In this document: piece by piece, positions 523 to 32,340 of the stretch
Position numbering within the stretch: position 1 is the first letter of the stretch
Layout of the letters: the number at the start of each line of letters is the position of its first letter
From: an uncultured Bacteroidales bacterium
Lineage (GTDB): Bacteria; Bacteroidota; Bacteroidia; Bacteroidales; TTA-H9
Assembly (NCBI GenBank): GCA_964444785.1
Contig: CAYUII010000005.1
Span: 101,500-165,499, forward strand
Direction: 5' to 3'
Length of the DNA: 64,000 nucleotides
Program-made: the position numbers and the translations under genes
Notes under the pieces: generated by a model
The model's input: the letters and a program-made list of their open reading frames with translations, nothing else
Database searches by the model: none
What the model was told of the DNA's origin: nothing

Positions 523-790
523 TTTTCTCTTCGGATTCTCTGCGGTACTTCTTCGCTTCTTCTCCATATAAATATCATTTTAAAAAGAGAAAAAAGGAGT
601 GTTGATTTGCAGTCGGGAGGCCGCCAGATCGAAAAGACCAAGTTCTTTCCCCCTATAATTATCTTTTTCTTAATATCGGATATGATTATCCTATCCTTCT
701 CTGCTTTTAAGGTGGAGCTGTTTTAGTTCTCATTTGAACGATCAAAGAGCGAAGAAGAAGCGAAGAGCGAATGGAGGGGAAGGGGGCGTC
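523..790. repeat. Intergenic inverted element A built from ~11-nt CT-rich and GA-rich units
   Basis: CTTCTTCGCT (548-557) is the reverse complement of AGCGAAGAAG (748-757); 759-782 matches 32305-32328 at 22/24 nt. Confidence 0.65.
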
Positions 791-795
791 GAACC

Positions 796-1665
796 CTATT
801 TAAGAATGTAGTTTTTATACTCTCCCGGTCTCCATCCAGTCTGTTTTTCTATAAAGTGAAGTAAAGCGGCTTTCATTCCAAAGTTTTTCTTGGTCGGATC
901 AAATTCAAAAGACCAATTTACTCTCTTGATGCGGTCAATCATCTCTTTGGGATGAGAGCCAGTAAAGTGCGATAGAGAATCAATGTTGCTGTAATCGAAA
1001 AGGGTGGTGTTCCCTACATTTTTTTCTAACCATGAGTCATCGTGCCAGAGCTTATGGAAGTTTTTCTGTTTCTCTTGTTGTTTATCAGGAGGTTTAACCC
1101 ATCCATAGTGATGCATAAAGGCATTGGTCTGCTTGACAACTAGTTTACGATCATTGATTCGAAAGCCTTGGGCATCTCTATAACTTGACAGCCCAGCTTT
1201 GGGTTTTACTATACGAATCTCCTTGCGATACCATCTTCTTGAGTCTCCGATATAATCATAAGAGCCATAGAAATGAAGATAATTAACTAATAGCCCTTCC
1301 GTTATAGGGTCATCTTTGTAGTGCTCCATGGCCTTCATCAAATGAGGTAACCATTGTTCATGCATTACCTCATCTGCTTGAATATAGAAGCCCCAATCCG
1401 TATCTTCTGAGAGAGAATTAAGTGCTTTGTTGGTCTCCTCGGCTAATACCCGTCCCCCTGTTCGAAGAGACATATCCCACTTAGTGTCAATAATCTTGAT
1501 TTTATTTGCAGATATACTGCTTACTAACTCACGAGTCTCATCTTCGCTTTCACCAACAGCAACAACAAATTCATCGCAGATGGGGAGGATCGATTTTATG
1601 GATTCAACTACAGGGTAGTCATATTTAATGGCATTACGTATAATGGTGAACCCGGTGACCTTCAT
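796..1665 (-). CDS. Glycosyltransferase family 2 protein
   Basis: N-terminus MKVTGFTIIRNAIKYDYP; DXD-like IQADE motif. Confidence 0.85.
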   Translation of the reverse strand: MKVTGFTIIRNAIKYDYPVVESIKSILPICDEFVVAVGESEDETRELVSSISANKIKIIDTKWDMSLRTGGRVLAEETNKALNSLSEDTDWGFYIQADEVMHEQWLPHLMKAMEHYKDDPITEGLLVNYLHFYGSYDYIGDSRRWYRKEIRIVKPKAGLSSYRDAQGFRINDRKLVVKQTNAFMHHYGWVKPPDKQQEKQKNFHKLWHDDSWLEKNVGNTTLFDYSNIDSLSHFTGSHPKEMIDRIKRVNWSFEFDPTKKNFGMKAALLHFIEKQTGWRPGEYKNYILK

Positions 1666-1675
1666 GATGATTCTT

Positions 1676-3028
1676 TTAGAGCTCTTTTATACCGGTGTAA
1701 TTATGAGGATTGATCTTTAGAAGCTCCTCTTTCACTGATTGAGAGATGTCTAAACCCATGATGAAACCTCTTAAGGTGTCACGATTGATGTGTTCTCCTG
1801 TGCGGGTGAGGTTTTTTAGCGCCTCATATGGATGTGGGTAGTTTTCTCTTCTTAGTATAGTCTGGATAGCCTCAGCCACAACTGCCCAGTTGTTCTCCAG
1901 GTCTCTTTGTATTGCGGATTCATTTAAAAGTAACTTGCCGAGGCCTTTAGCTAAAGAATCGGTAGCTAGAAGCATGTGTCCAAACGGAACGCCAATGTTT
2001 CTTGTAACTGTGCTATCGGTTAGGTCTCTTTGTAATCTGGAAATGGGAAGTTTTGAGGCTAAGTGTTCGAAGAGGGCTATGGCTAGCCCAAGGTTGCCCT
2101 CCGCATTCTCATAATCAATTGGGTTGACCTTGTGAGGCATCGCCGATGATCCAACCTCTCCAGCTTTTACCTTCTGCTTAAAGTATTCCATTGATATGTA
2201 ACTCCACATATCGCGACATAAGTCAACTAAAATAACAGAAATCCTACGGAGGTTATCAAAGATGGCTGCCATACCATCATAATGCTCGATTTGGGTAGTG
2301 TATTGTTGCCGATCAATATTTAGGATGTCATTCAAAAAGGTATTGGCAAATGAAACCCAATCTATGTCTGGATAAGCTGCATAATGAGCATTAAAGTTAC
2401 CAGTGGCACCTCCAAACTTTCCGGAGTGAGGTAAGAAATGCAGCATTGATAATTGATTACGAAGCCTTTCTATATACACCATGACCTCTTTACCTAACCG
2501 CGTTGGCGAAGCTGGTTGCCCATGCGTGTGTGCTAACATCGAGACATCTGACCATTCATTGGCTAAATCGCTTAGCATGTTTACGATCTTCTCTATTGCA
2601 GGAACTAACACCTCTTTAAGAGCATCACGCATCATCATCGGTGTAGCGGTGTTGTTGATGTCTTGAGAGGTTAACCCAAAGTGAATAAACTCTTGGTATT
2701 TTTGAAATCCTAGACGATCAAATTGTTCACGAAGGTAATACTCAACAGCTTTAACGTCGTGATTGGTAACCCGCTCAATCTCTTTGATGCGATTAATTCC
2801 ATTGTCATCTATCTGAAGGTAGATCTCTCTTAATACAGAATAGTCCTTACGATTGAACTTTTCAAGTTGTGGCAGTGAGAGTCGACAGAGGGCAATGAAA
2901 TATTCTACTTCAACCTTTAACCGATATTCAATTAAAGCTCTCTCTGAAAAAAACGATGATAATGTTGCCGTTTTACTGTGGTATCTGCCATCAAGAGGCG
3001 AAAGGGCTGTTAAAGGTGTAAGTGCCAT
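1676..3028 (-). CDS. purB: Adenylosuccinate lyase
   Basis: LTALSPLDGRY, TNHDVKAVEY, THGQPASPT, fumarate-lyase signature GSSAMPHKVNPIDYEN. Confidence 0.97.
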   Translation of the reverse strand: MALTPLTALSPLDGRYHSKTATLSSFFSERALIEYRLKVEVEYFIALCRLSLPQLEKFNRKDYSVLREIYLQIDDNGINRIKEIERVTNHDVKAVEYYLREQFDRLGFQKYQEFIHFGLTSQDINNTATPMMMRDALKEVLVPAIEKIVNMLSDLANEWSDVSMLAHTHGQPASPTRLGKEVMVYIERLRNQLSMLHFLPHSGKFGGATGNFNAHYAAYPDIDWVSFANTFLNDILNIDRQQYTTQIEHYDGMAAIFDNLRRISVILVDLCRDMWSYISMEYFKQKVKAGEVGSSAMPHKVNPIDYENAEGNLGLAIALFEHLASKLPISRLQRDLTDSTVTRNIGVPFGHMLLATDSLAKGLGKLLLNESAIQRDLENNWAVVAEAIQTILRRENYPHPYEALKNLTRTGEHINRDTLRGFIMGLDISQSVKEELLKINPHNYTGIKEL

Positions 3029-3117
3029 AAGAATTTGATTTTAAGTTTGGTAGTGTTAAATGGTGTTCAGTGGCTTTAGAAATCGCCTCCATAAAATGAT
3101 CAAACTATTAATAATTA

Positions 3118-3125
3118 CAAAGGTA
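3118..3125 (-). promoter_or_regulatory. Bacteroidota sigmaA -7 box for purB
   Basis: Minus strand TACCTTTG matches TAnnTTTG, ~90 nt upstream of the purB start. Confidence 0.6.
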
Positions 3126-3228
3126 CAAACATATAAGATCGCTTCCAACCGTATCATGAAGCGATTACAGGCTCTCTTGCGGTAGCAGGCTTTCTATTGA
3201 TGTTTCTGCTGAGAAACTTATCATTTCT

Positions 3229-3236
3229 TACCTTTG
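3229..3236 (+). promoter_or_regulatory. Bacteroidota sigmaA -7 box for hutI
   Basis: TACCTTTG matches TAnnTTTG; divergent from the purB promoter. Confidence 0.55.
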
Positions 3237-3414
3237 TAAGAGAACTTCTGCTTTAACTTATTACGGTTTCACTATTGTTTTCTAATAAAAACGATGACTT
3301 ATTAAGATTTCTGATAAGTTTGAGGTTTCTTCTTTGATTAGATTGAATGAGGGGCTTTAATCTGAAACCGATGGTGTGTTAAATGAAGGAGTGGATAAAA
3401 ATAAAATTATTCTT

Positions 3415-4686
3415 ATGAAGACTCTATTTGTAAATATTGGTTTATTAGGTGGAATTACTGAATCGGAGGTGTTATTGAAGGCTGGCTCGGAAATGGGCTT
3501 ATTTGAAAGGATTGAGAATGCCTGGCTTTTGGTTGATGGAGAGCTAATTGATTCTTTTGGATCGATGAGTGAATTATCGATCAAGGTTGAGAAGCTAAAG
3601 GCTGAAAATATCTCATTTGATCAATACGATGTTCAGGGAGGGATGATGTTGCCTGCTTTTTGCGATTCACATACTCATTTGGTTTACGCAGGAAGTCGTG
3701 AGATTGAGTACATCGATAAGATAAAGGGACTTAGTTACGAGGAGATATTTGAGAGGGGAGGTGGTATCCTTAACTCTGCCCGGCGTTTGCATGAGGCATC
3801 GGAGGAGGAGCTTGTTGCGCAGGCGATGATTCGTTTGAATGAAATTATCAGATATGGTACTGGTGCCGTGGAGATTAAGAGTGGTTACGGATTATCTACT
3901 GAAGATGAATTAAAGATGCTGAGAGTCATCCGTAAGTTAAAAGAGCTCTCTCCTTTGACTATAAAAGCAACTTTTTTAGGTGCGCATGCTCTGCCGCTTG
4001 AATATAAAGGTCGTCAGTCAGAATACGTCGACCTTGTTATTAATGAGATGATTCCATTGGTAGCATCCGATGATTTGGCTGATTTCATAGATGTCTTTTG
4101 TGATAAAGGGTTTTTTACACCTGAGGAGACGGAACGCATGTTGATGGCCGGAATAAAATATGGCCTTCGTCCGAAGATTCATGCAAATGAATTGGACTAT
4201 AGCGGAGGTATTCAGGTTGGGGTCAAATACAATGCATTGTCGGTTGATCATCTTGAGTATACTGGTGAAGAGGAAATAGCTGTATTAAAGAGCTCAGAAA
4301 CGATGCCAACTATTCTTCCCGGGGCTGCTTTCTTCTTGAATATGGTACACGCACCTGCCCGTAAGATGATAGAAGCTGGATTACCTGTGGCTTTTGCCAG
4401 CGATTTTAATCCTGGATCTGCACCATCAGGTAATATGCAATTGATACTATCCATGGCATGTGTTCAATATCGTCTTCTTCCTGAAGAGGCGCTGAATGCA
4501 ACTACTCTTAACACTGCATATGCTATGGGGATAAGTGATGAGTTAGGAAGTGTCTGTGTAGGAAAGAGAGCCAATCTGATGATCACACATAGATTGCCTT
4601 CTCTTGAATTCTTGCCGTACGCATTTGGTAGCAACAAGGTTTCTGCAATGGTGCTCAACGGAGAGGTAATGGCCTTTAGCTGTTAG
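3415..4686 (+). CDS. hutI: Imidazolonepropionase
   Basis: PAFCDSHTHLV, EIKSGYGL, DVFCDKG, KIHANE, SVDHLE, ASDFNPGSAP motifs; ATG 3415 preferred over the TTG-type start at 3376. Confidence 0.95.
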   Translation: MKTLFVNIGLLGGITESEVLLKAGSEMGLFERIENAWLLVDGELIDSFGSMSELSIKVEKLKAENISFDQYDVQGGMMLPAFCDSHTHLVYAGSREIEYIDKIKGLSYEEIFERGGGILNSARRLHEASEEELVAQAMIRLNEIIRYGTGAVEIKSGYGLSTEDELKMLRVIRKLKELSPLTIKATFLGAHALPLEYKGRQSEYVDLVINEMIPLVASDDLADFIDVFCDKGFFTPEETERMLMAGIKYGLRPKIHANELDYSGGIQVGVKYNALSVDHLEYTGEEEIAVLKSSETMPTILPGAAFFLNMVHAPARKMIEAGLPVAFASDFNPGSAPSGNMQLILSMACVQYRLLPEEALNATTLNTAYAMGISDELGSVCVGKRANLMITHRLPSLEFLPYAFGSNKVSAMVLNGEVMAFSC

Positions 4687-4784
4687 TTTTCGATTTCTGC
4701 CTGATGCAATGGGTTGGTTTATTTGTTGTTATACTGGCAAAATTGTTTTCTGAGTAGTGTTTTGTAATTAAAATCAATAATCCA

Positions 4785-5732
4785 ATGCTTAGATTTAACC
4801 TCTTTCTATCATTGATTCTAGTTGTTCTTTTTGTTAATGGACAGAGTGAAGCTGTGCAACTTGATCGTGGAACCTTTCAGATAATGGGGGAGTTGCTGAT
4901 ACCAGCAAATGTCACTAAACCTGATGTTGTTCTGTTTATTTCAGGCAGCGGACCGACAGATCGTGACGGGAATCAAAAGAGTATGAAGAATAACTCGATT
5001 CTTCAGTTGGCGGTAGGACTTCAAAGCAATGGGATTGCATCTCTTCGATATGATAAACGGGGGATTGGAGCCAGCGTAATGAGATCGACTAATGAACGGT
5101 TGATGACTATTGACTCTTTAGTAGGCGATGCAGCCGATTGGATAGAGAAGTTGAAAAAGAGTGGTCGTTTTAATCGAGTGGTGGTAGCTGGCCATAGTGA
5201 GGGCTCACTAATAGGATTGTTAGCAGTATTAAAGGTCGGTGCTGATGGTTTTATCTCGATTAGTGGAGCTGGTCGTCGTGCTACAGACTTGTTGATGGAG
5301 CAACTATCGAAACAACCGGCAAAAGCAAAGAAGTATTATAAGAGTGCATTTGATACCTTGAGCCATGGGGATACACTTAAAGTGGTTGATACTTGGTTTT
5401 ATACCTTGTTAAGACCCTCCGTTCAACCTTATCTGATTAGTTGGTTTAAATACGATCCGGCTCAGTTAATGGGGGCTTTAAAGGTACCATCATTGATAAT
5501 TCAAGGGTTAAATGATCTTCAGATAAAGCAAACTGATGCTGAGTTATTGGCAGCAGCAAACAACAAATCCAGTCTCTGGTTAATTCCGGGAATGAATCAT
5601 GTCCTTAAGATGACAGAAGCTTCAGATATTAATGGACAGATGTCATCCTATACTACTCCTGATAGTCCAATAAATTCAGAGTTAGTGCCAGGAATGAAGC
5701 GGTTTATTTCAGGGTTGCCTTCATCGCATTAA
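4785..5732 (+). CDS. Secreted alpha/beta hydrolase
   Basis: Signal peptide; SGSGPTDRDGN, YDKRG, nucleophile GHSEG, catalytic D (GLND) and H (GMNH). Confidence 0.85.
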   Translation: MLRFNLFLSLILVVLFVNGQSEAVQLDRGTFQIMGELLIPANVTKPDVVLFISGSGPTDRDGNQKSMKNNSILQLAVGLQSNGIASLRYDKRGIGASVMRSTNERLMTIDSLVGDAADWIEKLKKSGRFNRVVVAGHSEGSLIGLLAVLKVGADGFISISGAGRRATDLLMEQLSKQPAKAKKYYKSAFDTLSHGDTLKVVDTWFYTLLRPSVQPYLISWFKYDPAQLMGALKVPSLIIQGLNDLQIKQTDAELLAAANNKSSLWLIPGMNHVLKMTEASDINGQMSSYTTPDSPINSELVPGMKRFISGLPSSH

Positions 5733-5767
5733 GATTTTCTAAGTTGTTATGAAAGGAGCGTGATAAT

Positions 5768-5798
5768 AAAAAAAGCCACCTAAGATAGGCGGCTTTTT
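5768..5798. terminator. Bidirectional intrinsic terminator between the hydrolase and yebC
   Basis: AAAAAGCCACCTA-AGA-TAGGCGGCTTTTT between convergent genes. Confidence 0.75.
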
Positions 5799-5819
5799 CT
5801 GTTTTCTTACTGCAGATGA

Positions 5820-6566
5820 TTACATTGCATCAACGATTTCATCGGTCATCTCCATGTTGTGGTAGATATTCTGCACATCATCATCTTCTTCGAAGATCTC
5901 AACCACTCTTAGAACCTTTTTAGCAGTATCCGGGTCAATGTCCATTGTTGTGATAGGAAGCCTTTGAAGTTGGGCACTTTCCGTCTCGATATTCATTGCT
6001 TCAAGGCGTTTCATGATGCTTCCGAAGTCTTCCATGGCAGAGGTGACTGTAATGAGACCATTTTCATCATCGATATCGATATCTTCGGCACCAGCGTCGA
6101 TGACCTCCATTTCGAAAGTATCAATGTCAGTTACATTGGCTCTTGGGATATTAAAGATGCCTTTACGGTCGAATACATGTGCCAGTGAACCATTTGTACC
6201 AAGGTTACCACCATATTTATTGAAGACGGCGCGAACATTAGCTACCGTTCTTTGGAGGTTATCGGTTAAACACTCAATGAAGATGGCAACGCCATGTACA
6301 TAACCTTCGTAAGTAGTTTCAGTAAAACTTGCCCCATCTTTATCACCGCCTTTACTGATGGCACGCTGAATGTTATCCTTGGGCATACTGGCTCCCTTGG
6401 CATTGGCGATTGCTAATCGAAGACGCGGGTTACCGTCAGGATCGTTGCCTCCTTCTCTTACGGCAATTGTAATTTCTTTAATAATCTTAGAAAAGATCTT
6501 CGAGCGCTTGGCGTCCAGTGCACCTTTTTTACGCTTGATGGTTGACCACTTATTATGTCCTGACAT
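5820..6566 (-). CDS. yebC: YebC/PmpR family DNA-binding regulator / translation-associated factor
   Basis: MSGHNKWSTIKRKKG, NPRLRLAI, YEGY, EEDDDVQNIYHN. Confidence 0.95.
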   Translation of the reverse strand: MSGHNKWSTIKRKKGALDAKRSKIFSKIIKEITIAVREGGNDPDGNPRLRLAIANAKGASMPKDNIQRAISKGGDKDGASFTETTYEGYVHGVAIFIECLTDNLQRTVANVRAVFNKYGGNLGTNGSLAHVFDRKGIFNIPRANVTDIDTFEMEVIDAGAEDIDIDDENGLITVTSAMEDFGSIMKRLEAMNIETESAQLQRLPITTMDIDPDTAKKVLRVVEIFEEDDDVQNIYHNMEMTDEIVDAM

Positions 6567-6677
6567 TTTATTTAGAAGTTAAGGTTTGATTTTGTGCCTA
6601 TTAAGAATAAGAATGCAAAAATAATAAAAAAATAGTGCTTTTCTACCATCATTTATAGGCAAGAGTTAGGTAGATTG

Positions 6678-6713
6678 AAAAAAAACAAAGAGACCGACTA
6701 CAAAGCCGGCCTC
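6678..6713 (-). terminator. Intrinsic terminator of the GIN-domain gene
   Basis: Minus strand GAGGCCGGC-TTTGTA-GTCGGTCTC followed by a T-tract; G:U pairs form on this strand. Confidence 0.7.
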
Positions 6714-6775
6714 CTTACGTCAATAAAAATAATGTAGTTCTAAATCAGAGAGTAAAAAAGTCATAAGTATTGGGA

Positions 6776-8398: not shown

Positions 8399-8432
8399 AG
8401 TTTAGAAATTTTTCGTTTCGTGCGTCTAAATT

Positions 8433-8465
8433 TGTGACGTTGCACGATTTTGAAATGTTACAGCT
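8433..8465 (-). promoter_or_regulatory. ECF sigma-type promoter for the GIN-domain gene
   Basis: Minus strand AGCTGTAACAT-N15-CGTCACA (TGTAAC-N17-CGTC); both boxes identical to the motif at 14502-14534. Confidence 0.75.
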
Positions 8466-8478
8466 TCTTTAAGAAAAT

Positions 8479-13987: not shown

Positions 13988-13992
13988 TGTTT

Positions 13993-19315: not shown

Positions 19316-19370
19316 CTAAACCCTTCCCTGAAGCTGATTTGTAATTATTTGTTAAATAGGGAATTTCCCA

Positions 19371-19460
19371 TAGCTCTCCGTATCCTCTCCATATCCTCTT
19401 CGATTATGAATGGATAAATTGGGAGTTGATATGGAGAGGGTAGGGAGAGGTAAGAGAGCC
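19371..19460. repeat. Intergenic inverted element B with exact 11-nt periodicity
   Basis: CTCTCCGTATC/CTCTCCATATC/CTCTTCGATTA, then GATATGGAGAG/GGTAGGGAGAG/GTAAGAGAGCC; 19437-19455 matches the reverse complement of 32166-32184 at 18/19 nt. Confidence 0.7.
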
Positions 19461-19551
19461 CAGCGGAATTCTTTGATAGGTTGACATGACTGGTTTTATA
19501 AATTATATTAGTGTTTTAGTGTTTTTTTGGTAAACTTTAACAGAGACAAGG

Positions 19552-20748
19552 ATGAGAAGATTCGTTGAAATTGTTTTAAGCTTTTTTTGTTTGTTTGGCT
19601 TTTTGACTATAAATGGTCAAAATAGTATTTTGAAAGACAAAGAGAGCCTGTCTATTTTTCAGACAGAACCAAACTTGGGAACAATGCATGTTGTTCAAGT
19701 AAAGATTGGAGCAGGACAGCATCTTTACACTGGTGAGTCATTGAGTGATATTCTTGATGATGGGTATAGTTCGCTCGATATTCGAATAGGGTGGCAGTCT
19801 AAGGGATACGCTGATTGGCAGAAGGCCTGGAATTATCCTTTGTACGGAGTGGGCTTTTATACTGGATGGATTGGAGAAAGGAAGTATTTAGGAAAGCCGG
19901 GTGCTATTTATGGGTTCTTTAGACAGCCCTTTTTGAATAGGCCTAAACACCATTTTTCTTGGGATCTGGCAGTTGGTCTGACATATGATCTTAATCCGTA
20001 TGATCCAGAGGAGAATCCGTTAAATGATGCCATAGGTGGGAGGATGGCTGTTTATTTCACTGCAGGGATAGATGGGAATATTCATATAAAGCCTGATTTT
20101 GATTTGACTTACGGTTTTCAGGTTGCTCATTTTAGCAATGGGAGAATAGAGACTCCGAATTATGGTCTCAATATGGTAGGTGTGAATTTGGGTGTACAGT
20201 ATTATTTTAATTCTGCCAGAAAGTTATTACAGAAGATTAATCCTGATTATCCTGTGAGGTCTCGCCCTATATGGATGGATGCTGAGTTAAAGCCGTGGAA
20301 GTCTTATTATGAGTGGAGTGTTGGAATCGCAGCAGGGATTGTACAAGCAGGGATGCATGAGGAGTATTATGGAACCTTTTCTCTGACTACAGATCTTTAT
20401 AGAAGATATGATTATGTTGGAGGAATAGGGGTTGGATTGGATCTCTTTTATGATGGTTCTATGCTAAAGGAGCTCTCTGATGCTGGTGAAAGTATTCGCG
20501 ATGATTGGTACAAACTTTTGGTTGGGGCACACGTAGGCCACCGATTTTATATTTGGAGGTTTAGTATTGATCTTAATTTAGGTACCTATGTCTTTAAGAA
20601 GACAGATATTCATAAGAATATATTTGCCAGATTAGGATTAAAGTATAGTTTAACAGATCGCTGGTATAGTGGAGTTGCTTTAAAGACTCAGGGTTTATCG
20701 GCGGCAGATTGGGTGGAATGGGGAATTGGTTATCGACTATGGAAGTAA
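19552..20748 (+). CDS. Acyloxyacyl hydrolase / PagL-like outer-membrane beta-barrel (putative lipid A deacylase)
   Basis: Signal peptide; PagL-type HFSNG motif (AHFSNGRIETPNYGLN); amphipathic strands; ends WGIGYRLWK. Confidence 0.75.
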   Translation: MRRFVEIVLSFFCLFGFLTINGQNSILKDKESLSIFQTEPNLGTMHVVQVKIGAGQHLYTGESLSDILDDGYSSLDIRIGWQSKGYADWQKAWNYPLYGVGFYTGWIGERKYLGKPGAIYGFFRQPFLNRPKHHFSWDLAVGLTYDLNPYDPEENPLNDAIGGRMAVYFTAGIDGNIHIKPDFDLTYGFQVAHFSNGRIETPNYGLNMVGVNLGVQYYFNSARKLLQKINPDYPVRSRPIWMDAELKPWKSYYEWSVGIAAGIVQAGMHEEYYGTFSLTTDLYRRYDYVGGIGVGLDLFYDGSMLKELSDAGESIRDDWYKLLVGAHVGHRFYIWRFSIDLNLGTYVFKKTDIHKNIFARLGLKYSLTDRWYSGVALKTQGLSAADWVEWGIGYRLWK

Positions 20749-22281: not shown

Positions 22282-22719
22282 ATGTCAGACCTGATTCCTT
22301 ATACAAGCTTTAACCCAGATGATATTGATAAACAATTAGACAGCCAAGAAGGTTGTTTGTTATACTTAGAAAAAGTTAAGTGGAGCAATGGTTTTGTTTG
22401 TAGAAAATGTGGTCATACAAACTATTGTAAAGGTAAGACAGTAGGAGCCAGGAGGTGCACTAAATGTAAGAAGGAGGAGTCAGCAACTGCACATACGCCC
22501 TTTCATCGATGTCATCTGCCATTACCCGAGGCCTTTAGAATTGCTAAGATGGTGTGCAATAACCCGACGATGTCAAGCTATTCTTTGTCTGATGCCATGG
22601 AGATTAGGCAAATGACCTGTTGGCGGTTCAAAAAGAAGATTATGGATTGTTTAAAGACCAATGATCCTCTTGCTTTGCAGATAAAAGAGGGGATGTACCA
22701 AAAAGGTAATTCTCTTTAA
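22282..22719 (+). CDS. Stand-alone IS1595-type zinc-ribbon/HTH protein lacking the DDE transposase domain
   Basis: EGCLLYLEKVKWSNGFVCRKC...RCTKC...SATAHTPFH...IRQMTCWRFKKKI matches the IS1595 transposase N-terminus; stops at 145 aa; TAnnTTTG box (TAATTTTG) upstream. Confidence 0.75.
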   Translation: MSDLIPYTSFNPDDIDKQLDSQEGCLLYLEKVKWSNGFVCRKCGHTNYCKGKTVGARRCTKCKKEESATAHTPFHRCHLPLPEAFRIAKMVCNNPTMSSYSLSDAMEIRQMTCWRFKKKIMDCLKTNDPLALQIKEGMYQKGNSL

Positions 22720-22750
22720 TGATTTAAGGAACGGAACAAGGTCTGAGAGG

Positions 22751-23158: not shown

Positions 23159-23166
23159 TATGAAAC

Positions 23167-23195
23167 AAAAAAAGAGACACGCAAAGTGTCTCTTT
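23167..23195 (-). terminator. Intrinsic terminator of the C1 peptidase gene
   Basis: AAAGAGACAC-GCAAA-GTGTCTCTTT. Confidence 0.75.
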
Positions 23196-23219
23196 AGAAT
23201 TATTTCATATAAGTTGCTC

Positions 23220-24929: not shown

Positions 24930-24991
24930 TTATCTTAATCTATTTGTTAATCATGAAATCGTATATAGCAATTATTATACCTATGGAATTT

Positions 24992-25978: not shown

Positions 25979-26338
25979 TATGCTATATTTTTGGGGTGTA
26001 ATAGATAGGTCGCTTTAGATCGGATAAACAAACTCCGTTTTTTTTACAAAAATAGCTTTTAAACTTAATTAATAGTTTATGATTTTGAATTAGCCGTTTA
26101 AACGTATTGATTAGGACGAACCCTGGTTTCATTTGGGTAAAAAGATGTTTAGAAAATGGTAGGTGAACATCCAAAATATTTGTAAAAGCCAGCTTAGAAC
26201 GCTACGATATCACTAACTTAGAGAGCGAATTATAGAAGTAAGCTGAATGAGACTGTTATGATAATAGTTTATTCATAGATAGTAGTGTTTTAACCTCAGT
26301 TGTATGCCTTCTTTTCAATCTCTAACAATTTATAGACC

Positions 26339-28423
26339 ATGAAGAAAACGTTGTTTTTTCTAATGCTTGTCGCTTTTTTTTCAGCCTATGGACAAGAGGT
26401 AACAAGAGACGAAGCAATTATTGTTGCTAAAAATTATTTTTCATCTCTTGATAGGAATAGTAAGCAAGTAATCACATTCAACAGCCTGAATGAAAATCGA
26501 GTCAATGACATCACCACCTGGTATGTTGTAAACTTTTTACCTGAGGGTTGGGTGATCGTTTCTGGAAGGAAGGAGACTAGACCAATTCTTGCATTTAGTT
26601 ATACGGGTTCTCTCTCCCTTGATAAGGCTACACCGCCTTTTCTTATGTGGACTCAGTACTATTCGTCTGAAATAAGTCTTGCTGTATCTGATAAAAAGTT
26701 AGCTCAGCATGGTGATTGGAGTGCTCTTTTAAACGGATCTAACTTGAAAAAAGGCAATGTACGATCACTATTGCCAATATTGACGAGTACATGGAATCAG
26801 GATTGGCCATACAATGATTCTTGTCCGGCAGATGCTGCTGGCCCTCATGGAAGAACCTATGCCGGTTGTGTGGCTACGGCTATGGGACAGCTGCTGTACT
26901 ATTTTAGGTATCCTGAGCATGGTATGGGCAGTTATTCCTATGAGTGTCCTGGTTATGGCACTCTATCGGCTGATTTTTCATTGGCAAGCTATGATTGGTC
27001 GGCTATGTCAGATGCCATAGATCGGAGTAATCCTGAGATTGCTAAATTATTATATCATTTAGGGATTTCCGTTGATATGCAATATGGTCCTGATGGTTCT
27101 GGTATGTATAATCATAAGGCGGCCTACTCTTTACGAACCTATTTTGGGTTAAACCCCGGAACATGTTATCTGTATCGTGACTCAACAAATCTGAACTGGG
27201 ATAGTGTAATAATCGATCATCTTGATCGTAGGATTCCTCTCTACTATGCTGGCTGGTCAGTGCCCAATATTAACGGACATGCTTTTATTTGCGACGGGTA
27301 CCAAGACTCCACTCTATTCCATTTTAATTTTGGATGGGGTGGTAATACAGATGGATATTATTCCATAGATCCGCTAATGCCTGGGGGAAGTAACTTTAAT
27401 TTGGCTCAAGAACTGATTATAAATGCAACACCCTATCAACCGGGTAATCCTTACCCCTCAATTGGATGTCAGAGTGGGAGCACTCTTCGATCATTTGATG
27501 GATCGTTAACTGATGGCGGAAATCCGTTGATTGGTTATAGTGCAGCTGATTGCAATTGGCTTATTGAACCACAGTCTATGATAGATTCTGTGTCAGCCCT
27601 TACCTTGTCTTTTAATTTGTTAGATCTCGATACGGGAGACTCCATTTATATTTATGCTGGTACTAATTCACAATCGCCGCTGTTAGGTAGTTGGGGTGGC
27701 TCAATCCTACCAGATGATATTAACTACGATGGGAATACTTTGTTTGTGTCGTTCAAAGCGAATAGTAATTCTGCCTCAAATGGATTTGACATCTCCTATC
27801 ATGCTACTTTACCCGTTTACTGTAAGATTATGCCCACTATTTATGATTTTAACGGAAGCATTGAAGATGGGTCGGGTCGGTTTCAATATAATGATGATCA
27901 AACCTGTTTATGGCGTATCCAGCCTGATGGAGCTCAGTCTATCACTCTTGTGTTTGATGAATTTGCTTTGGCTACGGATGACTACCTTAAGATTACTAAC
28001 CTTGTCTCAAATGAGGTTGTAGCAGAGATTTATGGACAAGATGATCCATCCTTTATACCAGAGGATCTTTTTATTCCAGCATCTAAGATTTCCGTATTGT
28101 TTAAAACGAATGATTCAAACAGGGAACAGGGTTGGAAAATGCACTATGATTCAAATGTGGGGGTAGATCAATTGAGCTCGGAAAGTAGATTATCCATTCT
28201 TCCGAATCCTAATAATGGATCATTTTCAATACGTTTTCCCGAGTCGATTCAAATTTCTGACCTAACCATTTACAATGAAACGGGGATTGCAGTCTATTCG
28301 CAAAAAGATGGATCTTTGACTCCATCTCTAGATTTAAGATTGTCGCTACAACCAGGTCTTTATTTCGTAACAGCGATTAGTCGTAACGGGATCAGTTACA
28401 TCGGAAAATTTATAGTCAACTGA
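26339..28423 (+). CDS. C10 (streptopain-like) cysteine peptidase with I69 prodomain, CUB domains and T9SS CTD
   Basis: WNQDWPYN, AGCVATAMGQ (Cys), NGHAFICDGY (His), HFNFGWGG; CUB-like DGSGRFQY...CLWRI; LPNPNNG...GLYFV CTD. Confidence 0.9.
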   Translation: MKKTLFFLMLVAFFSAYGQEVTRDEAIIVAKNYFSSLDRNSKQVITFNSLNENRVNDITTWYVVNFLPEGWVIVSGRKETRPILAFSYTGSLSLDKATPPFLMWTQYYSSEISLAVSDKKLAQHGDWSALLNGSNLKKGNVRSLLPILTSTWNQDWPYNDSCPADAAGPHGRTYAGCVATAMGQLLYYFRYPEHGMGSYSYECPGYGTLSADFSLASYDWSAMSDAIDRSNPEIAKLLYHLGISVDMQYGPDGSGMYNHKAAYSLRTYFGLNPGTCYLYRDSTNLNWDSVIIDHLDRRIPLYYAGWSVPNINGHAFICDGYQDSTLFHFNFGWGGNTDGYYSIDPLMPGGSNFNLAQELIINATPYQPGNPYPSIGCQSGSTLRSFDGSLTDGGNPLIGYSAADCNWLIEPQSMIDSVSALTLSFNLLDLDTGDSIYIYAGTNSQSPLLGSWGGSILPDDINYDGNTLFVSFKANSNSASNGFDISYHATLPVYCKIMPTIYDFNGSIEDGSGRFQYNDDQTCLWRIQPDGAQSITLVFDEFALATDDYLKITNLVSNEVVAEIYGQDDPSFIPEDLFIPASKISVLFKTNDSNREQGWKMHYDSNVGVDQLSSESRLSILPNPNNGSFSIRFPESIQISDLTIYNETGIAVYSQKDGSLTPSLDLRLSLQPGLYFVTAISRNGISYIGKFIVN

Positions 28424-28473
28424 TCCCGACATATTTTTTTTTCGATAGTGGCTGGATGTGATAAATTTTGAGG

Positions 28474-30966
28474 CTATTCGAATTCGCTCATCTCTTCGTT
28501 TTGACGTTGAAGTCTGCGCTTGAAATCATTGAATCGGTATGAGAAGCCTAGGAATACCATCTGCCCTTGTCTGGTTCTATTGCTTACACTGGTAAAGTTT
28601 TCGCCCCAAGAGGTGATGTTATATTTTTGTGATTTGAATAGATCGCTAATCCGAAGGCTGATAGTCCCTTTTCCTTTAAGGATATCACGTTTTACTCCAA
28701 TATCCATTCTCCAGGTTGCATCTCGCTTTCCTTGCGTTCCACCCATCATCATCGATCTAAACCCACCGATGCCTGGGGTAAAAACAACGGGTGCATCATA
28801 GTTAAAGTTGATCTGGAGATCAAAGATCTTGGGAATATTCATCATAGAATTAGCCTTTACTGTCCATGAGTCGTTTTCTTGACTTTCAGAAGCAATGTCA
28901 GGGCCTTCAAAGCGAGTTCTGAAGTAAGAGAAGTTAGCGTTGAGTCTCCACCAGCTGATGAGTTGTTGTGTTACGATAAGCTCTGCTCCGTAAGCTTTTT
29001 GTTTATCTTGATTTTTGAATGTTGTAAATGAGGTTCCATCATCATAAACTTCCATTACACGACTAACAACATCTTCTGTAAGTCGAGCAAAGATGCTACC
29101 ATTGATGTTAGTGGTACGAGTCAACTGCCCTGAATAGCCTAACTCTACTGAGTTAACATATTCAGGGTTAAGAGTTGGATTGCCAGCCGACAGATTAATA
29201 GGATCAGCATAGTTAATGAAGGGATTAAGAGCAGAGCTACCCGGTCTGTTAACACGACGGCTAAAACTTAACTGAAAAGAGTGGTTCTGCCAAGGTTCAT
29301 ATTTAATATGAACAGTTGGAAACAGGCTGAAATAGTTGTTGTTATAGATTGAATCTTGAGTTCGTTGGTCACTTTTGGTATTGGCTAATTCACCTCTAAG
29401 ACCTGCTTGATAAGTCCATGATTGACCAATGATACCAGAATAGATAAAATAGAGAGAGTTAAGATATTCATCGTAAACGAAGCGATTACTTCTGTTCGGA
29501 TCCAAGATAAAATCATCTATGATGTTGCTTGTGAGATATCTGTAATCTTGGTCTGATCTATTCCATGAGAATTTATAACCTGTTTCTATACGTCCTGAAC
29601 CCACTTTTTCTACATAATCGGTTTGAGCGGTGAGTGTATTTCTGAAACCATCAGAAAGGGTTCTTTGGATAAAATTGTTTCTATTGCCATAGTATTCTTG
29701 TAGAACATCATTGTCATTGCTTCCATCTGAGTAGGAATAGAAGAAGTCAGCGGTTAGTTCTCTTCCTTGTTTATCAAAAGTGCGTTTATAGTTTGATCCT
29801 AGTTCAAATCCATTGCCATCATTTTCAGATAATGAATTGCTGGTAAAGAATTGAGTTGTATCGTAGAGGTAATTTCGAGAGAGGTTAGATTGGACGTTTT
29901 TATTTTCGGATGTTCTGATATTGACTCCGGCATTGAACGACAGAGTGTTTTTGTCATTGATAAAGTAATCTAGTCCGGTTCTTATGTTGTGGAACATGTT
30001 GGATGAGTTGGATGTTCCATCTTGATCGAGGTAGGAGGCGGTATCACGGATTACAGAAGATCGGGATCCATTGCTTGTTCCATCGTGAGTAAACTTTCTT
30101 GCATCATAGTTACCGAAGATGTTTACTTTGTTTTTTCTGTAGTTGAGGCTGAGCGATCCACTGTAGCGATCGTTTGTTCCGGCGTTCAATTGAACCATAC
30201 CATTGATTCCGGCATTCTTTTGTTTTTTGAGAACGATGTTGATAATTCCTGTGGTTCCATCGGGATCGTATCTAGCTGAGGGGTTAGTGATTAACTCCAC
30301 GCGTTGGATCATAGAAGCAGGTAATTCATCTAAGCTGGTAAGGTTGCTTGGTCGTCCATCGATTAAAATGGTAATATTAGAGGAGCCTCTCATGCTTACA
30401 TTTCCATCAATATCAACTTGAACTGCGGGTATTGTTTGCATGACATCTACGGCTGTTCCTCCTTGAAGAGCAATATTCTGTTCTACATTGACTACCTTTT
30501 TGTCTAAGTTATACTCTGCAACTGCTCTCTGACCAGTAATTTCAACTCCTTCTAGTGTTTTAGTAGATGGCTTCATTCTAATAGTCCCCAATTCATAAAC
30601 AGGGTTTTTAGGGGTAAGGAAGACGGAGTCAATAATTTTGGTAGGATAGCCAATGAAGTGAATCTTTACGAAGAAACGACCAAAGGGGAGTTTTTCAAGT
30701 TTAAATTGGCCTTTTTCATCCGTAATGCCTCCATCGACGAGAGAGGAGTCTTTACTTTTAAAAAGGGCAATATTGCAATACTCCATCACTTGGCCTGATT
30801 GGGTATCAATAATACGGCCAGAAAGTTTTCCAATCTTTTCGTAGTTTCCTCTGTTTCCACCCTGTCCGGTTGGTCTTTGCGAAGAAGTTCTTTCTTGAGC
30901 GAAAGTAGAGAGAGCACTCAGAAAGATGATAATGAGGGTCAATAGCAATAAGTTAGATTTTTTCAT
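28474..30966 (-). CDS. TonB-dependent receptor-like outer membrane beta-barrel protein with a carboxypeptidase-regulatory-like N-domain
   Basis: GKLSGRIID..., plug VPAVQVDIDGNVSMRG, ELITNPSARYDPDG; C-terminal FSYRF. Confidence 0.88.
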   Translation of the reverse strand: MKKSNLLLLTLIIIFLSALSTFAQERTSSQRPTGQGGNRGNYEKIGKLSGRIIDTQSGQVMEYCNIALFKSKDSSLVDGGITDEKGQFKLEKLPFGRFFVKIHFIGYPTKIIDSVFLTPKNPVYELGTIRMKPSTKTLEGVEITGQRAVAEYNLDKKVVNVEQNIALQGGTAVDVMQTIPAVQVDIDGNVSMRGSSNITILIDGRPSNLTSLDELPASMIQRVELITNPSARYDPDGTTGIINIVLKKQKNAGINGMVQLNAGTNDRYSGSLSLNYRKNKVNIFGNYDARKFTHDGTSNGSRSSVIRDTASYLDQDGTSNSSNMFHNIRTGLDYFINDKNTLSFNAGVNIRTSENKNVQSNLSRNYLYDTTQFFTSNSLSENDGNGFELGSNYKRTFDKQGRELTADFFYSYSDGSNDNDVLQEYYGNRNNFIQRTLSDGFRNTLTAQTDYVEKVGSGRIETGYKFSWNRSDQDYRYLTSNIIDDFILDPNRSNRFVYDEYLNSLYFIYSGIIGQSWTYQAGLRGELANTKSDQRTQDSIYNNNYFSLFPTVHIKYEPWQNHSFQLSFSRRVNRPGSSALNPFINYADPINLSAGNPTLNPEYVNSVELGYSGQLTRTTNINGSIFARLTEDVVSRVMEVYDDGTSFTTFKNQDKQKAYGAELIVTQQLISWWRLNANFSYFRTRFEGPDIASESQENDSWTVKANSMMNIPKIFDLQINFNYDAPVVFTPGIGGFRSMMMGGTQGKRDATWRMDIGVKRDILKGKGTISLRISDLFKSQKYNITSWGENFTSVSNRTRQGQMVFLGFSYRFNDFKRRLQRQNEEMSEFE

Positions 30967-30995
30967 TCCTCTTAATGTTTTCGGATATAGACTTT

Positions 30996-31024
30996 TAGAC
31001 CTGTTAGAGATATCACAGTTTAAC
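30996..31024 (-). promoter_or_regulatory. Possible second ECF-type promoter upstream of the TonB-dependent receptor
   Basis: Minus strand GTTAAAC-N17-GTCTA, ~30 nt upstream of the ATG and downstream of the usp terminator. Confidence 0.4.
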
Positions 31025-31053
31025 AGAATAATGAAATATTAATCACATAAATT

Positions 31054-31084
31054 AAAAGAGGTCGGATAAACCCGACCTCTTTTT
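31054..31084 (-). terminator. Intrinsic terminator of the usp gene
   Basis: AAAAGAGGTCGG-ATAAAC-CCGACCTCTTTT. Confidence 0.8.
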
Positions 31085-31124
31085 GTGCTTTAGATTTTAG
31101 CAGCACCAATAAGAAAGGAAAAGA

Positions 31125-31967
31125 CTAATAATCGACGATTTTCGTCCAATTGAGTTCTCTTGGGTTTATACACATGACAGGAATCTGAGATGTGTTGAAA
31201 ATCATATCTTCGTCATAGCTGCCGAGAATAAAAGTAGGAAGCCCCTTTTCAGGATTGGTCATGATCATGATTAAGTCAGCATTGACTGTTGTAGCATAAT
31301 CGATAACTTGTTTGCTGAAATCAGCTGATTTATCAGCTGTTCTAACAGTGTATTTTGTGCCTGCTTTATCGAAATGTTCGGTTATAGTGCTAACAGCTTC
31401 AGCGATCTCTTCACCTGGTAATTGATAAATGATGATCTCAGCCTGGAATCGGTTTGCAATATAGGTAGCCCATTTTGTCTTCTCCCATGGACCTGCATTG
31501 CTGGTGATAGGTAGGACAATCTTGCTGTATCCTGATTCAAAACTTCTCTTTTGAACAACAATCACTGGTGCTGGCGAACTGGTAACAACTTTTAGGGCAT
31601 AGCTGCCAAGAAACATCTGGTCTAGACCAACTTTACCATGAGTGCCCATGTATAGCAAACGAGCACCTACCTCTTTCGCTACTTCAGCAATTGTGGTGAA
31701 AATGCTCCCTTCACGCGATACAACGTCAACTTCAATCTGATCTTTAACCTTAATCTCATTAGCAATCGTCTGAAGTTTATCCAGTACGGAGTTGTCAGAA
31801 AGATTATCTTTCTTAAGGGCAGTTTTTGTGTTCTTATCTATCACATGTAGCAAAACTACTTTATACTTAAAGAATTTCGCTGCTTGTACTGCTTGATGAA
31901 TTGCATTGTCAGCCACTTCGGTGAAGTCTGTGGGGACAAGAATAACATTATTCATTTGAGTTTCCAT
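31125..31967 (-). CDS. Universal stress protein (tandem USP domains)
   Basis: ILVPTDFTEVA, LYMGTHGK, GSYALKVV, second domain ADLIMIMT; TAnnTTTG box at ~32009-32016 supports ATG 31967 (or 31955). Confidence 0.88.
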   Translation of the reverse strand: METQMNNVILVPTDFTEVADNAIHQAVQAAKFFKYKVVLLHVIDKNTKTALKKDNLSDNSVLDKLQTIANEIKVKDQIEVDVVSREGSIFTTIAEVAKEVGARLLYMGTHGKVGLDQMFLGSYALKVVTSSPAPVIVVQKRSFESGYSKIVLPITSNAGPWEKTKWATYIANRFQAEIIIYQLPGEEIAEAVSTITEHFDKAGTKYTVRTADKSADFSKQVIDYATTVNADLIMIMTNPEKGLPTFILGSYDEDMIFNTSQIPVMCINPRELNWTKIVDY

Positions 31968-32165
31968 GTACGTTAGAATTTGGAAATAGCAAAATATGGA
32001 ACTGACACAAAGGTAACAAAATTGCGTTGCGAATGCATACAATCTGAAAAAAGTAGATTAACCTTTTTTTCTATCTGAAAAGTTGGTTGCTCAAAGCTTT
32101 TTTTGTTACCATATAACAAATAGTAGTCAGGTTGGTTCATAAGAACCCTCAATTCAATTAGTTGT

Positions 32166-32340
32166 TCTTACCTCTCCCTATCCTGTTCGCTCTCCCTTCG
32201 CTTTTGATTCGAGTTTTAGCGGATAAACCGGCTGCAATAATGAATTATGGACAATCAGAAAAAAAACCTGATCATAACAACCCGAGGTATCTGAATGGAG
32301 CGAGAGCGAAGAGCGAACGAAGGGGAAGCGAAGAGGTCGG
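32166..32340. repeat. Intergenic inverted element C of the ~11-nt unit family
   Basis: Left arm CCTCTCCCTAT/CCTGTTCGCTCT/CCCTTCGCT pairs with right arm GAGCGAAGAGCGAACGAAGGGGAAGCGAAGAGG; shares segments with elements A and B. Confidence 0.7.

Follow-up and report, generated by a model that had tools for sequence, protein, structure and literature searches.

Inverted repeats built from 11-nt units in an uncultured Bacteroidales bacterium: a probable lineage-specific family of small MITE/REPIN-like elements

What kind of sequence are the skewed inverted repeats found at three intergenic loci (A, B and C) of an uncultured sludge/wastewater Bacteroidales, and how have they come to resemble each other? 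All three lie in a single 64-kb stretch of DNA, hereafter called the window. A preliminary description had recognised in them CT-rich left arms and GA-rich right arms that are imperfectly inverted, and had assigned them to a dispersed, intergenic inverted-repeat family. Both the arms, which pair better than composition-matched shuffles, and the family, which is non-coding, have been confirmed. Taking the evidence together, we favour the reading that A, B and C represent copies of one MITE/REPIN-like family, made up of small, non-autonomous inverted-repeat elements and restricted to this lineage, and we consider this reading probable.

On either strand, the 5' arm of an element is rich in pyrimidines and the 3' arm in purines; each measures ~35-55 nt, with a purine or pyrimidine fraction of 71-89%. 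The arms are built from a short terminal leader followed by 3-5 tandem 11-nt units, each made of 5 variable nucleotides and GRAGAG. The leader is of the GAATT type in A1 (the first hairpin of locus A) and in B, whereas C begins with ACCTCT and shows AATT only 15 nt further out. The interiors between the arms range from 25 to ~185 nt and are not conserved from copy to copy. The 11-nt period, first described for B, is indeed present there, but it is a property of all six arms, each with a lag-11 self-identity of 0.49-0.57 (reached by 0/2000 shuffles) against 0.26-0.39 at other lags and 0.44 at lag 22. The CT-to-GA pairing is constant in 7/7 pairs seen, namely A, B, C and the further pairs beyond them, of which there are at least four (one in L140, two in X31 contigs with spacers of 67 and 110 nt, and one on a 166-kb X4 contig). 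The density of loci in readable sequence is low, with 3 per ~74 kb.

The resemblance among arms was assessed with shuffles preserving arm composition. The scores of A_right/C_right (18), B_right against the reverse complement of C_left (16), the reverse complements of B_left and C_left (13) and B_left/B_right (16) were each reached by 0/2000 shuffles, and that of A_left/A_right (14) by 1/2000. Thus, the family survives comparison with controls of equal skew in five arm pairs. The sequence sharing reported earlier was also recovered, AGCGAAGAGCGAA being exact at both 759 and 32305, and the 23-mer GGAGAGGGTAGGGAGAGGTAAGA matching 32166-32188 on the minus strand at 20/23 positions (3 mismatches; expected 0.00). 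Two arm subtypes can be distinguished, a GCGAAG type (A and C_right) and a GGAGAG/GATA type (B and C_left), and no significant similarity between A-type and B-type arms was found with these shuffles. Element C is a chimera of both, showing that the subtypes can be combined in one element. An arm HMM run over the 64 kb matched the six arms and nothing else; a suggested fourth remnant near 36447 gave no match, a sister strain carries a different CT run at this place, and the remnant has been discarded.

Locus A is a composite and not a simple element. Its inverted repeat (538-557/748-767; 20 nt, 85%) and perfect 14-nt core (550-563/753-766) join an outer CT-rich arm (514-569), composed of the leader GAATTGGGCTTTT and ~four 11-nt units with a lag-11 identity of 0.52, to an outer GA-rich arm (744-787) with the units AGCGAAGAAGA/AGCGAAGAGCG/AATGGAGGGGA. 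The CT arm reaches a depth of 86 over a baseline of 17.6 in X4, where paralogs match 538-569 (1 mismatch) and 548-571 (exact). The GA arm reaches 104 over 17.6, with paralogs matching 744-776, 744-768, 738-772 and 750-779, and a copy found ~13 kb upstream, in the same contig, differs from it by a single additional 11-nt unit, AGCGAAGAAGA. Between these conserved outer arms lie a degenerate GA-rich block (582-642), with one copy in the genome, and a degenerate CT-rich block (643-705; purine fraction 0.25), and thus the locus is readable as two adjacent hairpins. In the first, A1, the outer CT arm pairs with the inner GA block (517-527/631-641, 91%), and the fold at 515-643 on the + strand has -37.5 kcal/mol and z = -2.6. 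In the second, A2, the inner CT block is a weak partner of 744-787, and the fold does not differ significantly from shuffles (z = -1.05). A cluster of dimorphic SNPs is found at 660-717, in the inner CT block.

Element B, with an inverted repeat at 19366-19395/19428-19457 (30 nt, 83%, 32 nt between), stands after a canonical terminator hairpin, which is also kept in a related lineage. Its left arm (19362-19402) starts with the terminus AATTTCCCATAG, followed by CTCTCCGTATC, CTCTCCATATC and CTCTTCG; it has a depth of 88 against 17.6, and paralog alignments begin at 19363/19364. Further degenerate GA units can be read in the loop (19403-19427), which is shared by a single paralog of 81 nt (19369-19449, with 8-11 mismatches). 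The right arm (19428-19471) ends in the window strain in the degenerate terminus GCCCAGCGGAATTC. Many strains carry a 1.1-kb deletion that has this right end as a breakpoint and removes most of the PagL-like gene; in them, the arm has the terminus GCCGTATGGGAAATT, fused to 20560, and the joint 19460->20560, with GTATGGGAAA between, gives the element nearly perfect inverted termini (AATTTCCCATA/TATGGGAAATT). The joint occurs in JGI, NCBI, ENA and Logan contigs, is at main genome depth in X19/X20, and is contained in the complete variant contigs L142-L145, L147, L148 and L150. The variant end may come from a second insertion plus recombination, or from an adjacent deletion. The right end of B being a deletion breakpoint, it is partly shown that the element ends are recombinogenic.

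In element C, the inverted repeat is 32170-32202/32305-32337 (33 nt, 73%, 102 nt between). The left CT-rich arm (32170-32205) is B-type (ACCTCTCCCTATCC...), matches B_right at 20/23 positions of the 23-mer with an 18/19 core inside it, and has one additional copy in X4. The interior (32206-32293) is single-copy, at baseline depth only, and varies among strains, with 4 sites segregating among 16 strain sequences, and 9 SNPs seen in run X31. The right GA-rich arm (32294-32337) is A-type, with 44 nt forming four units, and represents the commonest arm type in the genome (depth 320 vs 17.6, or ~17 extra copies). The same 124-kb contig carries an exact 44-nt copy at a distance of 79 kb, and the alignments of the arm with its paralogs have sharp limits, starting at 32291-32297 and ending at 32332-32337.

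The expectation that further copies would exist genome-wide has been borne out, since ~30 additional arm copies were located on metagenome contigs of matching depth (17-18.6). Arm depth is 2-18x the baseline, assemblies break at the arms, and copies differ by whole 11-nt units. Outside this genome, no copies were found with the arm HMM in 1.34 Mb from 80 Bacteroidota genomes, nor in the viral contigs and plasmids searched. In the collections searched, the best ValRS match has 70% identity. At the sites orthologous to B and C, the element is missing from two related lineages, whose neighbouring genes are ~73-85% identical in nucleotide sequence. In one, the ValRS-PagL spacer measures 145 nt, against 333 nt here, and does not contain B. 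At the C site, colinearity extends to the stop codon of the beta-lactamase-family gene (32348-32350) and the sequences are unrelated at once thereafter, no CT arm being present in the 98 nt past that stop codon in the related lineage. This absence could reflect loss and not gain, because the intergenic DNA is too diverged for exact boundaries to be drawn. Within the species, no empty site was seen, as A, B and C are present in all strains.

No transposase, RAYT, integrase or reverse transcriptase was detected by Pfam in the window or in 10 kb upstream, the scans covering window ORFs of >=80 aa not overlapping a longer ORF, plus precomputed Pfam hits. The only mobility-related match, 2.8 kb away from B, is an orphan Zn_ribbon_IS1595 protein of 145 aa, in agreement with the previous statement that no transposase is adjacent. 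The window also contains an HU gene. Direct repeats of the kind expected from a target-site duplication were not seen next to the ends of A, B, C or variant B, and the flanks of paralogs are unrelated. Thus, the MITE-like proposal keeps the absence at orthologous sites of relatives and the deletion breakpoint at B in its favour, and lacks the target-site duplication. On the whole, these data suggest that the element behaves like a miniature mobile element.

It can be proposed that the elements are spread, or homogenised, at the DNA level by a putative enzyme encoded elsewhere, which would recognise the arms or their termini. Considering that interiors are unrelated despite near-identical arms, in contrast to classical MITEs, in which the whole element is moved as one piece, the likeness of the arms may be maintained by gene conversion limited to them, or by some other process specific to the arms. 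The elements would land in intergenic DNA, often directly past a stop codon or terminator; their location at or near gene 3' ends, already pointed out, has been corroborated. Since copies lie inside transcription units, they would be carried on neighbouring mRNAs, where the arms could pair into long CU:GA hairpins. These hairpins probably affect 3'-end stability or read-through, as a by-product.

A possible, although clearly less likely, explanation is that the family is kept chiefly as a functional RNA structure, with hairpins in 3' or 5' untranslated regions that would stop exonucleases, be cut by RNase III or serve as read-through terminators, and with DNA spread being secondary. The B hairpin folds far beyond shuffles (z = -5.3) and better on the + strand, that of both neighbouring genes (-51.6 kcal/mol), than on the other (-38.3); C (z = -2.6 to -3.2) slightly favours the strand of its neighbours; and 11 nt corresponds to one turn of an A-form RNA helix. 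Moreover, C starts directly past a stop codon, and contigs from RNA libraries extend from the upstream gene across the whole of C, ending 40-70 nt beyond it, and from ValRS across B, although these contigs are unstranded and may contain DNA. On the other hand, neither the whole locus A nor A2 folds better than shuffles, a canonical terminator conserved in a related lineage already precedes B, and arms do not have significantly fewer segregating sites than other intergenic DNA (7/289 vs 26/574, p = 0.14). The exact 44-nt identity of distant copies requires DNA-level copying in any case. Rfam yielded only a tRNA above the gathering threshold in the window, and E-value scans of the three loci gave nothing, or sub-threshold miRNA-hairpin noise on B. 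Three roles had been put forward, namely phased protein binding, protection of RNA 3' ends and triplex or cruciform formation, and the results relevant to them are hairpin potential, strong for B, and the RNA-library contigs only.

It seems rather unlikely that a DNA-binding protein of the host recognises the arms as phased arrays of putative sites, with GRAGAG recurring on one helix face at 11-bp intervals, the copies being regulatory or architectural and not mobile. The protein may be a nucleoid protein, a winged-helix response regulator or a domesticated transposase, and the Zn_ribbon_IS1595 protein and the HU gene have been counted in its favour. The lag-11 period, in which the hexamer is conserved and the 5-nt spacer varies (the layout of OmpR/PhoB-family boxes), and the variation by whole units fit such arrays. 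Nevertheless, near-exact identity over 44 nt and repeats that break assemblies exceed what convergence of binding sites would give, the sites are mostly downstream of genes and not at promoters, no protein is linked to them, and the periodicity could be the trace of past tandem duplication or slippage.

Somewhat less probable still is that these are true REP/BIME-type elements (REPINs), whose hairpins in single-stranded DNA would be the substrate of a single-copy RAYT, an IS200/IS605-like Y1 transposase that mobilises them. The general layout recalls REPINs (PMC3116915), in that conserved ends face each other in inverted orientation across a spacer that is less conserved, a hairpin can form in ssDNA or mRNA, the copies are extragenic, and neither a target duplication nor an adjacent transposase is seen. 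However, the REP/BIME membership proposed earlier fails because single arms, being purine-only or pyrimidine-only, cannot be palindromic REP units. In addition, the 5' GTAG/CGTC tag is missing, the termini being GAATTTCCC, GAATTGGGC or ACCTCT; the spacer varies from 25 to ~185 nt instead of being fixed at 71 or 110 bp; and no RAYT occurs in the ~75 kb examined.

Non-B DNA (intrastrand triplex or H-DNA) and invertible promoter switches (invertons) are very improbable readings. The homopurine/homopyrimidine blocks recall triplex motifs and the BoxC repeats tied to genome instability (PMC4666352), and inverted repeats around 100-190 bp recall Bacteroidales invertons. Yet two Watson-Crick-complementary blocks lie here 25-185 nt apart, and not three adjacent ones with 1-6-nt loops. 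Contigs from eight DNA runs show no strand-switch joint at either B or C, the sole "opposite strands" joint, at A, being a paralogous copy on the same contig; the 25-nt loop of B is too short for inversion, and no recombinase gene is nearby. Finally, chance resemblance of low-complexity purine/pyrimidine tracts, which the skewed composition and the dissimilarity of A-type and B-type arms could have suggested, is refuted by shuffles that almost never reach the observed matches (0-1/2000 per pair), by the many near-identical copies in the genome and by an HMM that finds only six arms in 64 kb and none in 1.34 Mb of other Bacteroidota.

Phased arrays are known in OmpR/PhoB-family boxes, in the 11-bp iterons of pMV158-type plasmids and in the transposase sites of Tn7/Mu/IS21 ends. 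The likeness of our family to them is a functional analogy (a hexamer and a 5-nt spacer per 11 bp, repeated 3-5 times on one helix face), whereas here the arrays form inverted pairs in dispersed, near-identical and mostly gene-distal copies. Triplex motifs consist of three blocks of only 6-15 nt, joined by loops of 1-6 nt and capable of forming intrastrand triplexes (Holder et al. 2015, PMC4666352). Those of the E. coli BoxC type share with the family dispersed intergenic homopurine/homopyrimidine blocks and local genomic rearrangement, but here two complementary arms of 35-55 nt, far apart, are fit for a hairpin or cruciform and not for a triplex.

MITEs, such as the Neisseria Correia elements and BrickBuilt, are likewise small, non-coding, species-restricted, intergenic, bounded by terminal inverted repeats (arms 73-85% complementary in our case) and co-transcribed with their neighbours. 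In classical MITEs, the interior is conserved, the size is uniform and a target-site duplication is present; this family shows none of these features, and its arms are multi-copy while the interiors of A and C are single-copy. BrickBuilt, from another member of the Bacteroidales, Porphyromonas gingivalis, has ~19 copies with tandem sub-repeats varying in number (Klein et al. 2015, PMC4596501); its 23-nt repeats form one direct central array with small inverted ends, whereas the 11-nt repeats described here constitute the inverted arms themselves.

REPINs/BIMEs are REP doublets that form hairpins and are mobilised by RAYTs (Bertels & Rainey 2011, PMC3116915). As in them, the ends of an element form an inverted doublet and are better conserved than the spacer between them, a long hairpin is predicted in ssDNA or mRNA, the copies number in the tens and are strictly extragenic, and neither an adjacent transposase nor a target duplication is seen. 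In contrast to them, the arms are not the imperfect palindromes of 20-40 nt that define a REP unit, carry no GTAG/CGTC tag, contain 3-5 tandem 11-nt units with strong strand skew, enclose spacers that vary freely in length and sequence, and mix two subtypes in one element. In sum, the family represents a familiar type of bacterial repeat in an unusual form, and not a new kind of system.

The preliminary description had recognised three intergenic loci as imperfect inverted repeats, and this is confirmed for A (514-787), B (19362-19471) and C (32170-32337), in each of which a CT-rich 5' arm and a GA-rich 3' arm lie where it had placed them. The words that it reported as shared between loci are also real. 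Thus, AGCGAAGAGCGAA occurs exactly at both 759 and 32305, and the right arm of B matches the reverse complement of the left arm of C at 20/23 positions, a match of which none is expected by chance. When the arms were compared with shuffles preserving their purine skew (n = 2000 per arm pair), the control that the preliminary description had itself proposed, the best local matches were seldom or never reached: none of the 2000 shuffles did so for the right arms of A and C, for the right arm of B against the reverse-complemented left arm of C, for the reverse-complemented left arms of B and C, or for the two arms of B, and a single one did so for the two arms of A. In this same comparison, A-type and B-type arms show no similarity to each other. 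There are therefore two arm subtypes, one rich in GCGAAG (both arms of A and the right arm of C) and another rich in GGAGAG/GATA (both arms of B and the left arm of C); since element C carries one of each, its arms are only 73% complementary.

The 11-nt period, noted at first in B, is present in every arm and is thus wider than claimed. Self-identity at lag 11 is 0.49-0.57 in 6/6 arms, a level that no shuffle reaches, and that exceeds the values for lag 22 (0.44) and for the other lags (0.26-0.39); the units stacked in register consist of five variable bases followed by GRAGAG. Element termini among the copies begin with GAATTTCCCATAG, GAATTGGGC or ACCTCT. An HMM built from the six arms matches only those six in the 64 kb, and misses the supposed fourth remnant at 36447, which has to be withdrawn from the family, its short CT run reading differently in a sister strain (contig L112), where it is replaced by TTCTTCTTCTTCC. 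In the same neighbourhood, the 24-nt sequence ATAxGTGATTAATTATACTGATCT (36455-36510) is tandemly duplicated in the window and single in L112. At 36728/36729, the window lacks 1124 nt present in that strain (L112 5122-6245); the gap falls in the middle of a gene for a 459-aa multi-pass membrane protein, leaving a pseudogene in the window, and its breakpoints share the microhomology GAGAGG.

Metagenome contigs containing this genome were aligned to each locus at 80% identity. In sequencing run X4, where the genome lies on a 124-kb contig at a depth of 17.6, the interiors of all loci are at baseline depth, while the arms of A reach 86 and 104, those of B 88 (left) and 36 (right), and those of C 36 (left) and 320 (right). 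Taking into account that the additional arm pieces are found on other long contigs of equal depth (17-18.6), they represent other sites of the same genome, in which roughly 30 further arms exist at ≥80% identity. Among them, the C right arm recurs as an exact 44-nt copy at a distance of 79 kb on the same contig, B has an 81-nt paralog that takes in the loop, and the A right arm has a copy, some 13 kb upstream of the window, that is identical but for one added unit, AGCGAAGAAGA. An apparent 11-nt insertion after 747 is not a strain polymorphism, as the strain loci show it to be this paralogous copy on the same contig. Paralogs of the C right arm align from 32291-32297 to 32332-32337, beyond which neither flank is related, and these sharp boundaries define a conserved module of about 44 nt, that is, four units.

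Wherever arms are paired, the CT-rich one comes first and the GA-rich one second, read on either strand. This is the case for A, B, C, one pair on a 166-kb X4 contig, two pairs in contigs of run X31 (spacers of 67 and 110 nt), and a new family copy (CT arm 90-131, GA arm 312-356) on L140, a 5-kb contig reached via a sulfatase homologue upstream of the window. L140 comes from an NCBI metagenome and belongs to the same species (96% identity); its segment 1-463 places the copy upstream of the sulfatase gene, where other strains (L116 1-209) have the start of a gene for a 1074-aa PAS sensor. The difference reflects either a rearrangement near the element or an assembly chimera.

Locus A is a composite. 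Its multi-copy parts are limited to 535-573 and 730-781, which enclose two degenerate blocks: one rich in GA (582-642) that pairs with the left arm, and one rich in CT (643-705) whose pairing with the right arm is only weak. The left arm and the GA block fold at -37.5 kcal/mol (z = -2.6), with TTGGGCTTTTC/GAAAAGACCAA as terminal inverted repeat, and the whole locus folds no better than its shuffles. Within it, 660-717 is a dimorphic cluster with 7-9 SNPs in 58 nt, the rest of 2.4 kb being almost identical, and its two haplotypes are common to many metagenomes, which suggests a short imported or converted tract rather than independent mutations. Just 5' of this locus, a 90-aa protein (195-467, + strand) without a Pfam match is encoded directly 3' of a 1221-aa DUF285 protein; its N-terminus is signal-like, its middle is rich in Gly, Ala and Pro, and at its C-terminus a hydrophobic segment precedes basic residues, with the look of a sorting signal.

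The window is a chromosome segment with a G+C content of 40%, carrying Bacteroidota housekeeping and T9SS-type genes (ValRS, adenylosuccinate lyase, a TonB-dependent receptor, Por_Secre_tail proteases, HU and an RRM protein). Metagenomes with exact or near-exact copies of it come only from sludge, wastewater, retting, bioanode and freshwater, and the species is abundant in the runs behind SRR5221246, SRR10566893 and JGI 3300027851. The GTDB-based collection has Prolixibacteraceae and Bacteroidales MAGs as its closest genomes, with a ValRS identity of only 70%, and exact matching of ValRS and of the last ORF in the window retrieved no entry. All three elements are present in every conspecific strain sequence. 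Outside the species, the arm HMM found no match in 1.34 Mb around ValRS from 80 other Bacteroidota loci (GTDB genomes), BLAST against plasmids gave none, two exact-pattern scans of viral contigs returned only coding or chance matches, and a JGI metagenome scan with GCGAAGAGCGAAYGRAGGGGAAG returned only same-species orthologous loci and one coding chance match. In a related lineage (PagL 81% identical in amino acids; neighbouring genes 81-85% in nucleotides, range 72-85%), the spacer between ValRS and the PagL-like lipid A deacylase gene measures 145 nt, versus 333 nt in the window, retaining the ValRS terminator hairpin and lacking element B. Similarly, a contig with a 90%-identical beta-lactamase-family gene (73-77% nucleotide identity overall) matches the window colinearly as far as the stop codon, directly beyond which the sequence is unrelated, no CT-rich arm being found in the remaining 98 nt.

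The right end of B is associated with a rearrangement. In runs X19 and X20, 19460 and 20560 are joined in contigs at main genome depth, ten additional bases (GTATGGGAAA) lying between them, a variant confirmed by the full contigs L142-L145, L147, L148 and L150 (JGI, NCBI, ENA, Logan). Here B lies directly 5' of the last 189 nt of the PagL-like gene (19552-20748), the promoter and first 1 kb of which are absent; the missing 1.1 kb (19461-20559) is lacking in many conspecific strains. A flank beginning GTATGGGAAATTTAG belongs to this deletion variant of the B locus itself and not to a paralog of B. The right end of B in the variant, ending in GGTAAGATAGCCGTATGGGAAATT, reproduces the left terminus GAATTTCCCATAGC near-perfectly in inverted form, and that of the window strain is the degenerate GCCCAGCGGAATTC, resembling the second terminus type seen at the left end of A (GAATTGGGC) and at a paralog flank (GGCCCAATTCGGAATCC). 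A simple deletion of window-type sequence cannot create the variant terminus. Either B would have recombined with a second B-type copy inserted in PagL, or the adjacent deletion would have been mediated by a right end still intact in the ancestor, the tip being lost in the window lineage; in both cases the element end would be an active DNA breakpoint. A second, low-depth variant lacks 19786-20200 within the PagL-like gene, which shifts the frame. The population seems able to dispense with this gene, which is apparently in decay. Directly 3' of B and 5' of the PagL-like gene, a near-consensus sigma-70-type promoter-like site (19481-19509, + strand; TTGACA-17-TATATT, 11/12) is gone in the deletion variant.

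B forms a strong hairpin on the + strand, which is that of both neighbouring genes (-51.6 kcal/mol, z = -5.3; -38.3 kcal/mol on the other strand), and the fold of C is moderate (z = -2.6 and -3.2). Rfam gave no match, with only sub-threshold miRNA-hairpin noise for B. In metatranscriptome assemblies, all of C is covered by low-depth contigs that come from the beta-lactamase-family gene and end 40-70 nt past the element, the Usp gene downstream is on separate high-depth contigs, and a single high-depth contig extends from ValRS across the terminator of this gene and into B; such contigs are unstranded, may include DNA, and show presence in RNA libraries and nothing more. Among 16, 9 and 6 strain sequences, the arms have 7/289 segregating sites, compared with 26/574 for intergenic DNA outside them and 15/1280 for neighbouring coding sequence; the difference between arms and other intergenic DNA is only a trend (p = 0.14), and a description of the elements as invariant arms around hypervariable interiors was accordingly rejected.

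No transposase, integrase, RAYT or reverse transcriptase gene is found in the window or in 10 kb upstream. The sole related gene encodes an orphan 145-aa Zn_ribbon_IS1595 protein (22282-22719, + strand), 2.8 kb from B and conserved in all strains, which has only the zinc-ribbon of IS1595-type transposases, without a DDE domain, and could be a domesticated DNA-binding protein. An RRM_1 RNA-binding gene (37750-38103, - strand) and an HU gene (36077-36346, + strand), both less than 6 kb from C, stand as generic candidates for proteins that bind structured RNA or DNA repeats.

Taken together, the family fits lineage-specific, non-autonomous inverted-repeat elements of the MITE/REPIN kind: the arms are homologous and their inverted geometry is fixed, copies number in the tens and lie in intergenic DNA, related lineages lack an element at orthologous sites, a rearrangement is associated with an element end, and coding capacity is absent. 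A bolder and rather improbable proposal is that the propagated unit is the arm module of about 44 nt and not the whole arm-interior-arm element. Arrays of 11-nt GRAGAG units would then be placed, or made alike, on either side of unrelated local DNA, always in the 5'-CT...GA-3' geometry. This would account for exact 44-nt arms with unrelated flanks on both sides, for unit-number differences between copies and for chimeric arm types in one element. As candidate processes, repeats would be added from a template at the 3' ends of a broken DNA or a DNA fragment, each such end being the purine-rich strand, as at telomeres, or a protein binding the phased hexamers would drive a gene conversion restricted to the arms; if true, the mechanism would be one not described for bacterial repeats. 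The preliminary description, which had suggested a REP/BIME- or MITE-like family, was right in kind, its REP/BIME part being ruled out because single arms cannot be palindromes and carry no GTAG/CGTC tag. A coding reading was rejected, as copies differ by 11-nt units and hence in reading frame, and so were inverton, triplex, CRISPR-like and attC-like readings.

The elements add a well-delimited repeat family from an uncultured Bacteroidales lineage widespread in wastewater, sludge and freshwater; to our knowledge, small mobile repeats have barely been catalogued in this phylum. At the population level, the deletion of a lipid A deacylase-like (PagL-family) gene is marked by one copy, so that the family visibly drives differences in gene content between strains. 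Short-read contigs often terminate at the arms, whose practical effect is to break short-read assemblies of the organism. For DNA of this type, it is unusual that arms are strand-skewed and consist of 11-nt units in phase with the helix, that arm types can be mixed and that interiors are free, and the architecture points to a putative arm-binding enzyme.

Among known systems, triplex-motif repeats (PMC4666352) have purine/pyrimidine blocks in common with the family, although their architecture is different. Classical MITEs show target duplication and a conserved interior, whereas the family described here has neither, and its membership of that class is only partial. The closest analogues include REPINs (PMC3116915), with conserved inverted ends, a looser spacer and a hairpin, and the 'BrickBuilt' MITE of Bacteroidales (PMC4596501), which is likewise made of tandem sub-repeats.
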